Shown here in pieces: positions 5,527 to 42,415 of a stretch of 64,000 nucleotides of DNA (the stretch's first letter is position 1; each line of letters starts with the position of its first letter). The translations under genes and the position numbers were made by a program. The stretch is from Escherichia coli (GTDB lineage Bacteria; Pseudomonadota; Gammaproteobacteria; Enterobacterales; Enterobacteriaceae), in NCBI RefSeq assembly GCF_002854065.1, contig NZ_CP024147.1. One strand, given 5' to 3'. Below the pieces are notes generated by a model that was given only the letters and a program-made list of their open reading frames with translations, was not told the DNA's origin and did not search any database.

Positions 5527-7340
<1,814 letters not shown>

Positions 7341-36208: not shown

Positions 36209-37597
36209 TTATAGGGTTAAGCATTGAATACTGGTGCGCGCGGCGGCCAGCGGATCGACTCTGGCGACGTTTGCCAGCAGTGGTAATAGCCCCCGGGAAT
36301 CGCGGTAATATTCAAATTCGGTCGGTAAGAGAATGCGTTTACCGTCGTCGTTTAACTCGCGGTATTTCAACCAGTGATGCATATCGAACTGACTGGCACG
36401 CGAGAGCCATCCGCCGGATCCGACGACTTTACGCACGGTTGTCAGGTCACGTCCCATCTGTAAATCGACATTGCCGACGCAGGTGCAGACCTCTTTTTTG
36501 GTGCCCGCATGTCTTTCGGTGGCATAACCCACACACAGTCCGGCCAGGACGGTATCGAAATATTTCTCTTCTGCATTTGCGGGTAAGTAGTCGGGATGAG
36601 CGACTAGATGACGGAGGTAATGATAAAAAGCGTCCAGCTGTGCGGGTTGCTGAGCAAAATTCACATTGACTAACTCTTTCGCACTTTCACCAACCACCAC
36701 TGCCGAGACGCGCATTCCCAGATCGCCTTCCACCGTCCGTTTTACGAAGGGTTCCGGTACGCCGTGTAAAACGGTGTCGGGCGAGAGCGTGTTGGCACAG
36801 GCGGAATAAACATCGGTGGTTGCGCCGCCCATGTCGATCAGCATGAACTCTTTCCAGCTGTGATCGACGTTACTGATTGCCTTGACCAGTTCAAAGACCG
36901 TCCATGGTGTCGGCATTGGTTCTTCGCCTGTTTTATCAACAATGACATCCAGCCCTTTCCCTTTAACGATGCGTTTAAGGAATATGTCGCAAATAGCCTG
37001 GCGTGCGGCTAAAGGGTTCGGATGGTCAAGATCGGGCAGAACATTGTCGACGATGGTCAGGTCTTTATGCCCGAGGATCTCCTGCACCTCGTCCTGAATA
37101 TCCCGGTTTCCGGCATAAATAATGGCGCAGTCGAGTTTGGATTCTGCCAGCACACGGGCGTTATTCAGTCCGTAGCTTTCTTCTCCGCCGTCGGTGCCGC
37201 CGGTGAACAAGAGAATATCGGGCTGCGTTTCTTCCAGTGCCTGGATATCACGGCGGTTCAGCTTGTAGGCGTAATATTGCGCAATTTTAGCACCCGCAGA
37301 GTGAGCGGTTACTTTCGCGGTTTCCAGGGTGATAGAAGGCACCAATCCCATTGCGGCAACCGCCAGCCCACCTTTGGCAGAGGAGGAATACTTCAATGCA
37401 ACCTCACCGCTGTTTAACAGGGGGAGGGCATTATCTACGTTTAACACCTGGTTCAGGCTGGAGAAAAACCCCTTCGCCAGATGATGGGTGGTGGTTGGGG
37501 TCAGTACGTGGTTAACCAACGTTAACGCGTCCCCCTCCCGGGTGAAGAGGGCTGCTTTGGTCCACGTCGATCCAATATCGACAGAGACGATTTGCAT
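36209..37597 (-). CDS. glmL: Glutamate mutase-associated protein GlmL/MutL (ASKHA-fold ATPase-like)
   Basis: 462-aa ORF between glmS and glmE, as in clostridial glutamate mutase operons. Confidence 0.8.
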   Translation of the reverse strand: MQIVSVDIGSTWTKAALFTREGDALTLVNHVLTPTTTHHLAKGFFSSLNQVLNVDNALPLLNSGEVALKYSSSAKGGLAVAAMGLVPSITLETAKVTAHSAGAKIAQYYAYKLNRRDIQALEETQPDILLFTGGTDGGEESYGLNNARVLAESKLDCAIIYAGNRDIQDEVQEILGHKDLTIVDNVLPDLDHPNPLAARQAICDIFLKRIVKGKGLDVIVDKTGEEPMPTPWTVFELVKAISNVDHSWKEFMLIDMGGATTDVYSACANTLSPDTVLHGVPEPFVKRTVEGDLGMRVSAVVVGESAKELVNVNFAQQPAQLDAFYHYLRHLVAHPDYLPANAEEKYFDTVLAGLCVGYATERHAGTKKEVCTCVGNVDLQMGRDLTTVRKVVGSGGWLSRASQFDMHHWLKYRELNDDGKRILLPTEFEYYRDSRGLLPLLANVARVDPLAAARTSIQCLTL

Positions 37598-38046
37598 CAG
37601 ATAGCCTCTTCAAGAATACGAGTATCAACGTCATGACGTTGGTTGATATCGTGGGCCATCAGCTGACAAACATCTTCTAAGTCATGACTTGGGGCAAAGA
37701 CGCGATCAAATCCCATCTCTTTGAATTTGGTTTCCACGTCAGCGAAGTCATGTTTTCCGACCACCAGGTTACCGCCCACATAGAGCAGGATGTCCCCCAG
37801 TCCACGCTCGATGCAGCGTTCGCGCATGCCCAGACAGTCGATATCGCCATGCCCATAGATAGAGGAGACGACAATCGCGTCAGCGCCAGTTTCAATGGCC
37901 GCATCAATATATTCGTCCTGGCTGACCATTACGCCCAGATTAATGACTCTGAAGTCGTGGTTGCTAAAAACGCGGTCCAGAACTTTATTGCCTACTGCAT
38001 GGCAGTCCGCGCCAATAACGCCAATCACAAGTGTTGCTTTCTTCAT
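37597..38046 (-). CDS. glmS: Glutamate mutase S subunit (B12-binding sigma chain)
   Basis: About 149 aa from [24 protein letters not shown]…; cobalamin-binding DxHxxG motif (ADCHAVG); TGATG overlap with glmL. Confidence 0.9.
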
Positions 38047-38592
38047 GGGTAATCCTTTGTAAGACAGAGAGTAAAATAAGTTACACACGTCGTATTTATG
38101 GCCGTTCATAACGGCACAGGTTTAATATCACAGGAGTGTCTTTATCTGACCGTAATGTTGCAATTGATCTATTTTCAAAATGTCTTTCGGGAAATGATTG
38201 TTTAAAGTGTGTTTTTAAATTCCCATGTTAATTCAGTATGTTATGTCAACTAATGTCATGAATGTTAAATTTTTAAAATTAACTTGATTTAATGTATTGA
38301 GATAATTGTGATCTACTTCTAATTTGCATTTTAGTGATATGGGTTTAGCCATGAGTAAATGCATTTCATAAAATTTAAGTCGAATTTCACTGCAATTCAT
38401 CTCTGCTTAATGTAAAAATAATGTTGAAAATAACAAATGGTTAATGATTCATGCGAATTATGACGTTAGTTAGCTCTTTTGATTTTTCGTAAAAAAGAGA
38501 GGTACATGAAGGTGCTACCAGTATGAGTAACGTTAATCAAAGGTTTTATTACGTCTGGCAATAACGCAGGCCATTTTCGCGACTGGGTGGAT

Positions 38593-39015
38593 TTAATCAG
38601 TATAATCCTCATACAATATTTCAGGATTAACTGAACCGTTAACCGGGTTTTGGTGTTGAAATTTAGAAATGGCGGAGTCAATCAATGAAGACAGTATCGA
38701 AAAAATAACTGTGTCAGAACTAATTTCAATTAATCCTTCTCGTTGTTGACCAAAAAAGATATTTATCTTGATTTCATTTGTACTACGGCAATCAATATGT
38801 AGTAATTTTTGATCGCTGAGATTTTCTGTTTCATAAATGTTTTTGGCGATAGTCGGATGTATTGATGCCAGACATCTGCTCAGATAAGCCAGATCCTTTA
38901 GGGAACACCCCGCTGAGTAGAGGATGTCAGAGAATTTTTGTGTGTCAACTGTTGTCTCTGAAGCGTATGTTGCATTGACAGGAAGGGTGTTGAAAGAGAT
39001 TTGAGATGGGATCAT
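38593..39015 (-). CDS. Hypothetical acidic protein (140 aa) in AT-rich segment
   Basis: ORF in a strongly AT-rich region; no recognisable motif. Confidence 0.5.
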   Translation of the reverse strand: MIPSQISFNTLPVNATYASETTVDTQKFSDILYSAGCSLKDLAYLSRCLASIHPTIAKNIYETENLSDQKLLHIDCRSTNEIKINIFFGQQREGLIEISSDTVIFSILSSLIDSAISKFQHQNPVNGSVNPEILYEDYTD

Positions 39016-39096
39016 TATTTAAATCTTTCCGTGAGTAATAAAAATTAATCCCCAGGCATTGTTTAACAATATTTGCCATAGGGGATATATAGAAAA

Positions 39097-40041
39097 TTAA
39101 AGTATTTTATTGGCTTCGGTTAACTGATCTATAACCAGTGCCAGATTGGTAAACATTTTGAAAAAGCGATACTGGCTCGGAATATCTCTTTCAAAGACGA
39201 AACATTCAAGGTCATTGTTTGAAAAATAAAGGACTAGTGTTGCTGATTCGTCAGGGAAAACATGGAAATGTATCTGGTTACCAGAAGGAGGATAGTCCAG
39301 AAGAAGGGTATCTTTGCCCGTCACATACCTGTTGTTGTCGTGGACGCTACGCTCACACTTCATCAGAGGTGTCAGGATACTCATGTATTCATCTGATGTT
39401 AATTTATTAAAATCATCATTCATTTTAAAGAAACGATAAAGTAACAGTACATCCTCTTGCGTAACCGGTTCGTTTGTTTTTAGAGGGAAATAAGCGGGAA
39501 CCAGAAGATGAGGTTCTAATCTATTTTGTTGAGCGCTATAACTGAATTTGAACATAAATTCCGGATCGCTCATCAATTGAGCGACATAATTATGCCTGGC
39601 TTCGAAAATTTTAATTTTTATCAGGTTAAATAAGTCTGTTTCGTCATCCTGTATTAAAAGACATTGGCCATAGCAGCCAGGCTTTTTTTCATTATAAGCA
39701 GAAACGGTTATTCTGTCAGAGGTGTCAACGTTATATTCAAAAGCCAGATAGTGACCTTCTTCATCGCGATTTGTTTCCAGGTTATTTAAATTCATCACAT
39801 GAAGTGTTTGCAATGCTGATTCAATGAGCTGTTGACTCTCTGAGGTAAATGTTTCGCGCTGCGTTGTATAAAGTGTATCAATTCCAACGACTATCCGATG
39901 TGGGTCAAGGATGGCGGCAATCATCTTTATTACCTGCACAGTCACGGGTGATGTCATTGATTCTTTATCTGTTTTTAGAGAATCATTAGATGGCCAACCT
40001 GAGAAGCGATTGACAGCCGAACCGATATTATCAGGACTCAT
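39097..40041 (-). CDS. Hypothetical protein (314 aa) in AT-rich segment
   Basis: ORF with Ser/Asn/Pro-rich N-terminus, no transmembrane segments, no recognisable catalytic motif; co-directional with the 140-aa ORF. Confidence 0.55.
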   Translation of the reverse strand: MSPDNIGSAVNRFSGWPSNDSLKTDKESMTSPVTVQVIKMIAAILDPHRIVVGIDTLYTTQRETFTSESQQLIESALQTLHVMNLNNLETNRDEEGHYLAFEYNVDTSDRITVSAYNEKKPGCYGQCLLIQDDETDLFNLIKIKIFEARHNYVAQLMSDPEFMFKFSYSAQQNRLEPHLLVPAYFPLKTNEPVTQEDVLLLYRFFKMNDDFNKLTSDEYMSILTPLMKCERSVHDNNRYVTGKDTLLLDYPPSGNQIHFHVFPDESATLVLYFSNNDLECFVFERDIPSQYRFFKMFTNLALVIDQLTEANKIL

Positions 40042-40547
40042 AGCAGCAACCTCATTGTAATCAAGCGAGGCGCTGAGCGTACTCGGCTATAGAAAAACTA
40101 ACTTGCAAAAATCGCTCATTTTTCATTTATCAGGCGAAAGTGGTCTCTGTACACTCAGAAACAATCACTCCCGCTAAGTCATACCTGTTTCATCGATACA
40201 TTTAAGTGATTATTACTAATGAAACAATAACATAACGGGCTTACGGTCGGTGCTCATAAAGGCAACAATCAATTAACTTTGATAAAAATATGTTATGTAA
40301 AATAGCAACAAATTGGCTACTCTAATCAATTGGTATTATAAAAAGTGGATAAGGCGGTTCTGTTAAATAAAATACTGGTTTTTTATCTATACCTTTTCAT
40401 TGTAATAATTGTGTTGCATAAATATTTCACAATAAATTAACAATAAAATCACCAATGATCTATGGTTTATACATAATTAACATATTTGGTTGGTTTTGAT
40501 ATAAATCAATTTTTAATTCTTGAAAAAAATCTGCAAAACACGATAAA

Positions 40548-40561
40548 TTGTCGTAGATCAA
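40548..40561. promoter_or_regulatory. Putative FNR/CRP-family site in the cydA upstream region
   Basis: ttgtcgtagatcaa matches TTGAT-N4-ATCAA with one mismatch; cydAB is known to be FNR/ArcA-regulated. Confidence 0.3.
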
Positions 40562-40846
40562 ATTGATGAGATCGTGACAATTTCGCTATAAATTGATCAC
40601 TGTCGAAAAATGCAAATTTGCTCAATAAAAACCTGTTTATTGTAAGGATTTTGCGGCGTAATATAATTACGGGATCAATTTGGTTTATTCATTAACATAT
40701 TTGTAACTTTTTTATCATTGTCTTTTCCTCTTTTGATGAAATGGCAACGATAGGGGCGAGCAAATAATTTTGTATTGGGGCATGCGTGTGACCCTTTCTA
40801 ACGGGGTTCACTCTCGGAGTCTTCATGCGATGAGCAAGGAGTCATG

Positions 40847-42415
40847 ATGTTAGATATAGTCGAACTGTCGCGCTTACAGTTTGCCTTGACCGCGATGTAC
40901 CACTTCCTTTTTGTGCCACTGACGCTCGGTATGGCGTTCCTGCTGGCCATTATGGAAACGGTCTACGTCCTTTCCGGCAAACAGATTTATAAAGATATGA
41001 CCAAGTTCTGGGGCAAGTTGTTTGGTATCAACTTCGCTCTGGGTGTGGCTACCGGTCTGACCATGGAGTTCCAGTTCGGGACTAACTGGTCTTACTATTC
41101 CCACTATGTAGGGGATATCTTCGGTGCGCCGCTGGCAATCGAAGGTCTGATGGCCTTCTTCCTCGAATCCACCTTTGTAGGTCTGTTCTTCTTCGGTTGG
41201 GATCGTCTGGGTAAAGTTCAGCATATGTGTGTCACCTGGCTGGTGGCGCTCGGTTCAAACCTGTCCGCGCTGTGGATTCTGGTTGCAAACGGCTGGATGC
41301 AAAACCCAATCGCGTCCGATTTCAACTTTGAAACTATGCGTATGGAGATGGTGAGCTTCTCCGAGCTGGTGCTTAACCCGGTTGCTCAGGTGAAATTCGT
41401 TCACACTGTAGCGTCTGGTTATGTGACTGGCGCGATGTTCATCCTCGGTATCAGCGCATGGTATATGCTGAAAGGTCGTGACTTCGCCTTCGCTAAACGC
41501 TCCTTTGCTATCGCTGCCAGCTTCGGTATGGCTGCCGTTCTGTCTGTTATTGTTCTGGGTGATGAATCCGGCTACGAAATGGGCGACGTGCAGAAAACCA
41601 AACTGGCTGCTATTGAAGCTGAGTGGGAAACGCAACCTGCGCCTGCTGCCTTTACTCTGTTCGGCATTCCTGATCAGGAAGAGGAGACGAACAAATTTGC
41701 GATCCAGATCCCTTACGCGCTGGGCATCATTGCAACGCGTTCCGTGGATACTCCAGTTATCGGCCTGAAAGAACTGATGGTGCAGCATGAAGAACGCATT
41801 CGTAACGGGATGAAGGCGTACTCTCTGCTCGAGCAACTGCGTTCTGGTTCTACCGACCAGGCGGTTCGTGACCAGTTCAACAGCATGAAGAAAGACCTCG
41901 GTTACGGTCTGCTGCTGAAACGCTATACGCCAAACGTGGCTGATGCGACTGAAGCGCAGATTCAACAGGCAACCAAAGACTCCATTCCGCGTGTAGCGCC
42001 GCTGTACTTCGCGTTCCGTATCATGGTGGCGTGTGGCTTCCTGCTGCTGGCAATCATCGCGCTCTCTTTCTGGAGTGTCATCCGCAACCGCATTGGCGAG
42101 AAAAAATGGCTCCTGCGCGCCGCGCTGTACGGTATTCCGCTGCCGTGGATTGCTGTAGAAGCGGGCTGGTTCGTGGCTGAATATGGCCGCCAACCGTGGG
42201 CTATCGGTGAAGTGCTGCCGACAGCTGTGGCGAACTCGTCACTGACCGCAGGCGATCTCATCTTCTCAATGGTGCTGATTTGCGGCCTGTATACCCTGTT
42301 CCTGGTGGCAGAATTGTTCTTAATGTTCAAGTTTGCACGCCTCGGCCCAAGCAGCCTGAAAACCGGTCGCTATCACTTTGAGCAGTCTTCCACGACTACT
42401 CAGCCGGCACGCTAA
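40847..42415 (+). CDS. cydA: Cytochrome bd-I ubiquinol oxidase subunit I
   Basis: 522 aa from [28 protein letters not shown]. Confidence 0.97.

Follow-up and report, generated by a model that had tools for sequence, protein, structure and literature searches.

Orphan genes (ORFans) in the AT-rich, H-NS-type accessory DNA of the Enterobacteriaceae have a low GC content and no homologues outside their genus; they are under weak purifying selection, patchily present, frequently pseudogenised and annotated as hypothetical proteins. Two further kinds of system come close to an AT-rich two-gene unit. Type II toxin–antitoxin and toxin–immunity loci consist of co-directional pairs in which one protein is small and acidic. 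Nle effectors with class I chaperones (CesT/SycE) are likewise AT-rich, have polar N-termini rich in Ser, Thr, Asn and Pro, lack a signal peptide and come with a small acidic partner. The CesT/SycE chaperones have the element order α-β3-α-β2-α.

Here we describe a locus with traits of all three, some of whose carrier lineages are LEE-positive, as with the effectors. It comprises two genes, referred to as A and B, in a stretch of 64,000 nucleotides of Escherichia coli DNA (contig NZ_CP024147.1; hereafter, the window). An earlier note, made from the letters of the window, had described the pair as a segment of separate horizontal origin whose architecture would fit a secreted effector with a chaperone, a toxin–immunity pair or a small anti-phage module; it had proposed homology and structure searches as well as pangenome and neighbourhood surveys as checks, and had named frameshifted copies in relatives as evidence that would count against it. 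Our analysis favours a different reading: A and B are probably genuine orphan genes confined to Escherichia, old residents upstream of the cydAB control region rather than a recent cassette, which confer a conditional, non-essential benefit. Both genes were already known from RefSeq, where they occur as hypothetical proteins in thousands of genomes, and the annotation of ECs_0767 and ECs_0766, their counterparts in O157:H7 strain Sakai, is the same. Literature searches by locus tags and accessions found no paper on either gene. What this analysis adds is the evolutionary status of A and B and the exclusion of several mechanisms.

Results

Two AT-rich genes between the glm island and cydA

The features of the locus, in window coordinates, are as follows.

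38047-38592, minus strand: B–glmS spacer, AT-rich (GC 0.32), with short ORFs only (55 and 71 aa) that are not in the RefSeq annotation
38593-39015, minus strand: gene B, 140 aa, 15.6 kDa, pI 4.67; ECs_0766 (ECs0766) of O157:H7 Sakai
39016-39096, minus strand: A–B spacer, 81 bp, GC 0.28
39097-40041, minus strand: gene A, 314 aa, 36.3 kDa, pI 4.83; ECs_0767 (ECs0767) of O157:H7 Sakai
40042-40146, minus strand: upstream stretch of A, 105 bp, with a GAGG ribosome-binding site located 8-11 nt 5′ of the ATG
40147-40206, no strand: outer boundary of the DNA that is specific to the module; the TPR-type E. coli haplotype, which lacks the module, becomes homologous at 40206
40207-40846, plus strand: cydAB control region, AT-rich and divergently common to A and cydAB

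The two co-directional minus-strand ORFs of 314 and 140 aa that the earlier note had listed were found at these positions, and its impression of an AT-rich segment between the glm and cyd genes was confirmed by base composition. The GC content is 0.385 for A and 0.366 for B, as against 0.50-0.53 for the flanking genes glmS, glmL, mutE and cydA and 0.513 for the whole window; the spacers flanking A and B are likewise AT-rich (GC 0.28-0.33). At this locus, glm denotes the glutamate (methylaspartate) mutase genes glmS/glmL/mutE and not glucosamine synthase. At the local composition, stops make up ~6.5% of random codons, and the chance of an open frame is ~6e-10 for the 314 codons of A and ~8e-5 for the 140 codons of B.

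Both encoded proteins are acidic, with 44 Asp/Glu against 27 Lys/Arg residues in A and 17 against nine in B; the acidity that the earlier note had ascribed to B therefore stands, whereas its count of eight Lys/Arg was one too low. The N-termini of both are polar, with an abundance of Ser/Thr/Asn/Pro and little Leu. For A this had been remarked on before, and these four residues indeed account for 13 of residues 1-30. A probably consists of this polar, disordered N-terminus followed by mixed α/β regions. Kyte–Doolittle hydropathy averaged over 19 residues peaked at 1.25 in A and 1.52 in B and indicated no signal peptide or transmembrane segment in either protein, in line with the earlier description of A.

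Selection on the two reading frames

The pattern of substitutions shows that A and B are real protein-coding genes under weak purifying selection. The dN/dS ratio was 0.30-0.55 for A and 0.17-0.37 for B; the corresponding values were 0-0.21 for glmS and glmL and ~0 for cydA. Ratios significantly below 1 were confined to the annotated frames, two wrong frames of A giving 0.78 and 0.92, and changes were commonest at third codon positions. Fisher tests of nonsynonymous against synonymous changes were significant for A, both in the comparison with E. albertii (p=3e-7) and with a minor E. coli allele (p=6e-6), as well as for B (p=2.7e-4). Selection on the frame, the mark of a coding gene, was thus found. 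Since a dN/dS of 0.3-0.55 is high, the constraint must be weak. The A proteins of E. coli and E. albertii align over their full length without gaps at 64% amino acid identity, with 23% divergence at the nucleotide level; the best-conserved part comprises residues 31-90 (80-83%).

A and B have no relatives beyond Escherichia and Shigella

Family and structure databases yielded nothing credible. Specifically, single-sequence searches of Pfam with A and B gave best, spurious E-values of 0.2-0.3, NCBIfam a best E of 0.045 at 13 bits against a cut-off of 221, PHROGs a best E of 0.058, and PDB sequences, searched by phmmer and by profile, E ≥ 0.78; PADLOC-DB v2 returned no family at E ≤ 1 for either protein. 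The earlier observation that neither protein has a recognisable motif thus extends to Pfam, NCBIfam, PADLOC, PHROGs and PDB, all of which came back empty.

The remote-homology searches led to the same narrow set of organisms. An initial, word-indexed search of 5.8 billion protein clusters returned exclusively Escherichia/Shigella sequences for both, with five clusters only for A and E. coli/Shigella relatives only for B. A HMMER profile scan of 1.84 billion (1.84e9) representatives with A gave 14 matches, every one a fragment or a frameshifted form of A. This exhaustive scan covered A, and B was covered by the word-indexed search; the HMMER library is an imperfect census, with no full-length A representative among the matches listed. 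The relatives of B include frameshifted and truncated alleles. Among ~100,000 species-representative genomes, A was detected only in E. albertii, in Escherichia sp. MOD1-EC7003 and on two MAG contigs, which match E. coli at 93-94% identity and probably reflect contamination during binning. No homologues of A and B were therefore found outside a narrow taxon, as is expected of orphans.

Structure prediction and fold comparison were carried out as the earlier note had proposed, but the models were unusable. AlphaFold2, run on shallow alignments, reached a pLDDT of 43.9 for A and 40.1 for B, and a Foldseek comparison of the A model with the PDB found nothing at E ≤ 0.001 or below E=0.19, with query-normalised TM-scores ≤ 0.17 that are meaningless at this pLDDT. 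The element order in the low-confidence model of B is three helices, three strands and one long helix. Because a repeated β-β-β-helix pattern appeared in the low-confidence models of both proteins, we also considered that B is a paralogue of half of A, or that A is an internal duplication. Both ideas were rejected, as hhalign gave E-values of 0.027-0.62 with probabilities < 2%, and Smith–Waterman scores fell within the range of shuffled sequences.

Distribution in E. coli and alternative cargo at the sucD–cydA interval

In the pangenome survey, the pair was present in 1135 of 5426 complete E. coli genomes (~21%), each with a single chromosomal copy except for one genome with two, and was missing from ~79%, K-12 included. 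Carriers among the matches listed include O157:H7, O145:H28, O157:H16, ST648 and ETEC strains, and come from dog, chicken, cattle, human and wastewater sources. The 2.7-kb segment 38100-40840, which contains the pair, is 100% identical to E. coli CUWW06 and ~98.5% identical to O157:H7 strains. In all 60 complete genomes that were sampled, the annotation includes both CDSs.

The neighbourhood survey gave a uniform picture: the gene order was glmS–B–A–cydA in every sampled E. coli case, while E. albertii has cydA–A without glm. The surrounding order (sucABCD, glm island, B, A, cydAB) is that of the chromosomal backbone. K-12-type genomes carry mngRAB between sucD and cydA instead, and another E. 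coli haplotype carries a gene for a TPR protein there. No integrase, defence gene or mobile-element hallmark was seen beside A and B, and no phage copies of the pair were found. Three matches were labelled as plasmids; these records look like mislabelled chromosomes because they are 0.73-4.9 Mb in size and are labelled non-mobilizable.

The pair is older than the E. coli–E. albertii split and is lost piecemeal

In the TPR-type E. coli haplotype, the cydAB control region matches that of the window as far as position 40206, at a distance of 165 bp 5′ of the A start, and a glmS remnant of ~100 bp is retained in colinear order (GlmS residues 69-102, E=8e-6). With both the remnant and the control region up to 40206 in common, this haplotype must have arisen by deletion of the island together with A and B.

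In E. albertii, the order is cydA, the control region, A, ~960 bp of AT-rich non-coding DNA, a gene of 258 aa and sucD; the glm island is absent from this locus. Nucleotide homology to the window covers cydA, A, the spacer and the first 26 nt of B, beyond which a 44-bp piece of B is all that can be recognised. Likewise, tblastn recovered B residues 1-9 and 30-60 in different frames. For A, at least 12 distinct full-length alleles of 314 aa were found in E. albertii, along with one allele of 271 aa, and in the type strain NBRC 107761 a frameshift splits the gene into 209 + 108 aa. Among the five E. albertii loci that we examined, B was degraded in all five and A was intact in four, the type strain being the frameshifted exception.

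The cryptic-clade strain Escherichia sp. MOD1-EC7003 retains the order cydA–A–B–glmS with intact glmS and glmL ORFs, and both A and B are pseudogenes. An ERIC-like element interrupts A, a second copy of this element follows A, and the first ~93 codons of B are deleted. In addition, B is truncated in S. dysenteriae, and some E. coli alleles of B are frameshift forms of 160 aa. The pair is hence eroding bit by bit, through deletions, frameshifts and ERIC insertion.

Collectively, the cydA–A(–B) arrangement, control region included, is orthologous in E. coli, E. albertii and the cryptic Escherichia clade. Because the cydA–A arrangement is orthologous in E. coli and E. albertii, the pair must already have existed before these two species diverged; its inheritance has been vertical, with repeated loss. 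The separate horizontal origin that the earlier note had read from base composition is supported to the extent that the GC content is low, and this low GC may record an ancient acquisition; a recent acquisition is contradicted by the orthologous locus in E. albertii and the cryptic clade, and neither a donor nor a mobile-element copy was found in any collection searched. Frameshifted relatives, the evidence that the note had named against itself, do occur, and several lineages carry frameshifted or deleted copies; most copies are nevertheless intact and show purifying selection.

Upstream and spacer regions

The 105 bp 5′ of A are 88% identical between E. coli and E. albertii, compared with 77% within the coding sequence of A and 63-68% in the intergenic DNA nearby. 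We regard this stretch as the probable 5′ UTR and promoter of A. No terminator-like site was found in the A–B spacer, and A and B may therefore be co-transcribed. The cydAB control region contains one perfect FNR-consensus box, at 40496-40509. On the other side of the pair, the B–glmS spacer presumably holds the promoter of the glutamate-mutase operon. An Rfam search of 37900-40900 gave no match, and promoter and terminator scans returned hits at chance level only.

Discussion

Several features of A and B could also mark functionless relics, either the decaying remains of something acquired long ago or spurious proto-genes within AT-rich, silenced DNA, persisting mainly by inertia. Their dN/dS is high, pseudogenes have arisen on several occasions (in E. 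albertii NBRC 107761, MOD1-EC7003 and S. dysenteriae as well as among E. coli alleles), ~79% of E. coli genomes do without the pair, and AlphaFold2 predicts no fold for either protein. We nevertheless consider relics unlikely, given that dN/dS is significantly below 1, and in the annotated frames only; that no stop or indel has entered the 314-codon frame over 23% nucleotide divergence, at a composition where ~6.5% of random codons are stops; that all 60 complete genomes sampled have both CDSs annotated; and that the 105 bp upstream of A are conserved better than its coding sequence (88% versus 77%). Prospects for an unrecognised substrate of the LEE or ETT2 secretion systems are poorer, and we find it quite improbable that A, and possibly B, is a non-LEE-type effector, with B as a second effector or as a chaperone. 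Intact copies occur in ST648 and in dog, chicken and wastewater isolates; the locus belongs to the chromosomal backbone and not to a prophage, pathogenicity island or T3SS cluster; and in CUWW06, which is 100% identical over the 2.7-kb segment, the ETT2 locus (yqeG to tRNA-Gly) has been replaced by IS1/IS2. The carriers do include O157:H7, O145:H28 and E. albertii, lineages that are LEE-positive, and A and B resemble nle genes in being AT-rich and effectors in lacking a signal peptide or transmembrane segment. Their polar, Leu-poor N-termini, rich in Ser/Thr/Asn/Pro, would suit secretion as well, but AT-rich codons by themselves yield such a composition. Although B shares its small size and acidity with class I chaperones, its predicted element order, at low confidence, differs from that of CesT/SycE, and B is gone in E. 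albertii, where A is kept. No trafficking or effector domain was found in A or B, and searches of Pfam, NCBIfam and PDB with single sequences or profiles linked neither to a family of effectors or chaperones. The effector–chaperone pair of the earlier note is thus unsupported, given the missing homology, the loss of B beside an intact A and the loss of ETT2 in CUWW06.

The fate of B in E. albertii also bears on the idea of a toxin–antidote pair, either a type II toxin–antitoxin or a toxin–immunity system, in which one product neutralises the other. As A has remained open there (at least 12 distinct full-length alleles listed) and B has been destroyed, leaving fragments, A cannot depend on B as its antidote, immunity protein or chaperone, and the toxin–immunity pair envisaged by the earlier note finds no support. 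It is true that a co-directional unit of a large gene followed by one for a small acidic protein has the toxin–immunity order, and that the family is orphan and fast-evolving. However, the genes do not overlap but are separated by an 81-bp spacer, no toxin, antitoxin, immunity or trafficking domain was detected in A or B with Pfam, NCBIfam, PADLOC or PHROGs, and a single copy at a fixed position, with no mobile elements and no relatives in other taxa, is unlike toxin–antitoxin and polymorphic-toxin families. A pair of this kind is therefore highly improbable; the reverse polarity, with B as toxin and A as antidote, is compatible with the pattern of loss and has no positive support. A small anti-phage defence module is very improbable, too. 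The sucD–cydA interval is polymorphic in the manner of a variable chromosomal hotspot, its cargo being mngRAB in some genomes, a TPR protein in others and the glm island with A and B in yet others, and the pair consists of AT-rich accessory genes to which no function is assigned. Yet PADLOC was empty even at E ≤ 1, no defence-type domain (nuclease, NTPase, TIR, SIR2, HEPN) was found with PHROGs or Pfam, and A and B decay independently of each other. The neighbourhood holds no defence genes, integrases or mobile-element hallmarks, copies on phages or true plasmids are lacking, and the pair is strictly vertical, confined to one genus and one locus, with no relatives elsewhere; a fixed, single-copy, vertically inherited locus is not what the earlier note's anti-phage module would lead one to expect.

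In addition, a role as an accessory of the glutamate-mutase operon is excluded, because E. albertii has A without any glm genes. This idea is also countered by MOD1-EC7003, where the glmS and glmL ORFs are intact and A and B are pseudogenes.

We thus favour old, Escherichia-specific orphan genes of conditional benefit. Under this reading, A would be a soluble, acidic, cytoplasmic α/β protein that works alone, since its frame stays open throughout E. albertii even though B has been lost there. It is probably expressed from its own conserved upstream region. Judging from composition and position, A would lie within AT-rich DNA of the kind silenced by H-NS and would share the oxygen-responsive control region of cydAB, which suggests a link to oxygen. 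B may be a dispensable accessory or else an independent small acidic protein. The benefit of the pair would be conditional and non-essential rather than addictive or immune. A bolder proposal, which we hold to be distinctly unlikely, is that A founded a family with a new fold and a new activity, having arisen or been captured in the Escherichia ancestor. A could then be an unrecognised factor, secreted or directed at the host, in lineages of phylogroups D/E/F and of E. albertii, or an oxygen-linked modulator divergent from cydAB, with B as an independent second factor. As far as the sequences go, a secreted role of A and B is possible.

For now, A and B join the many other orphan pairs of the E. 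coli accessory genome that have yet to be characterised. If A is active, it would be a genus-specific factor of O157:H7 and other phylogroup E strains, ST648-type lineages and E. albertii that is absent from K-12, and its chromosomal position would be a useful marker for the history of the hypervariable sucD–cydA locus. The main value of the analysis is negative: the toxin–antidote, defence and recent-transfer readings are removed, and A and B are not functionally locked together. Of the earlier description, the AT-rich pair without a recognisable motif remains; its three pair architectures do not, and a horizontal origin is ancient at best.

Compared with known systems, A and B depart from type II toxin–antitoxin and toxin–immunity pairs in their 81-bp gap, in the lack of toxin or antitoxin domains and in their single, fixed locus without mobility; in E. 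albertii, moreover, A is intact although B, the putative antidote, has been destroyed. They differ from Nle/CesT systems in having no homology to these families, in lying outside any prophage or island and in being kept without LEE or ETT2, and here, too, the partner is lost while A stays and the predicted element order of B is not that of the chaperone fold. The closest likeness is to the ORFans of AT-rich, H-NS-type DNA described at the outset. Unlike these, A and B are not part of a prophage or island with mobility genes but occupy a fixed backbone site by cydA that is common to E. coli, E. albertii and the cryptic clade, and A, with 314 aa, is long for an orphan.

Haplotypes of the sucD-cydA interval

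The E. coli locus L003, which carries a gene for a TPR protein in the sucD-cydA interval, retains a trace of the glutamate mutase (glm) island.

L003 about 5695-5790 (NZ_CP069445.1, sucD-TPR-cydA haplotype): diverged glmS remnant, ~100 bp

The remnant aligns with GlmS residues 69-102 at 54% amino-acid identity (E=8e-6) and is colinear, with the TPR gene on one side of it and the cydA control region on the other. The TPR-type haplotype is therefore a deletion derivative of an ancestor that possessed the glm island together with genes A and B.

Further features were seen in E. albertii and in strain CUWW06.

L004 9907-10683 and L014 4906-5682 (both E. albertii): gene for a 258-aa protein, with a B remnant on one side and sucD on the other
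L012 9436-10133 (CUWW06): IS1 copy directly following sucD, where the glm island has its edge
L018 40136-42803 (CUWW06): former ETT2 position, yqeG to tRNA-Gly

The N-terminus of the 258-aa protein resembles a signal peptide, and a search for Pfam matches to this protein found none; L015 has its gene in split form, and the type strain (L010) has a truncated version. In CUWW06, IS1, a GhoT/OrtT-family toxin gene and IS2 stand in place of the ETT2 type III secretion locus (yqeG/tRNA-Gly).

Gene A and the B–glmS spacer

When A was compared with a library of 50%-identity representatives, the matches comprised only fragments of ≤ 131 aa and frameshifted forms, and no full-length 314-aa representative was returned from this library; full-length A sequences are plentiful in the 90% clusters. 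Escherichia sp. MOD1-EC7003 (L011) has two inserts, one within A and the other directly after it.

L011 8349-8469 and L011 9091-9209: inserts of ~120 bp each

The first includes CCCCAGTCACTTACTTATGTAAGCTCCTGGGGATTCAC, the ERIC/IRU core in reverse complement, and the second is a diverged copy in opposite orientation.

The B–glmS spacer contains short ORFs only; it is listed here with the adjacent glmS ORF.

38047-38592: B–glmS spacer, 546 bp, GC 0.32
38233-38400: short ORF, 55 aa
38466-38681: short ORF, 71 aa, overlapping the end of B
37597-38109: longest glmS ORF, 170 aa, start at 38109

In RefSeq, glmS is annotated with its start at 38046 and a length of 149 aa (MKKATLVIG...), and the current Sakai annotation lacks a locus tag ECs_0765 between ECs_0764 and ECs_0766.

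The cydAB control region

The following stretches upstream of cydAB were compared.

Window 40400-40846; L002 (K-12 type) 5930-6373; L003 6195-6641; L004 7197-7643: cydAB upstream control region
Window 40496-40509: perfect FNR-consensus box TTGATATAAATCAA, ~340 bp upstream of cydA

Across 40400-40846, the window haplotype is 90-98% identical to E. albertii and TPR-type E. coli, but only ~82% identical to the K-12 type, to which homology ends at ~40471. The box TTGATATAAATCAA is the sole perfect FNR-consensus match in the 64-kb window; its E. albertii counterpart, TTGATGTAAATCAA, is conserved except for one change in the first half-site, and K-12 has TTGATATTTATCAA. The cydAB regulatory DNA of K-12 has been heavily studied. 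Given its lower identity, it is this K-12 sequence that is the outlier within the genus.
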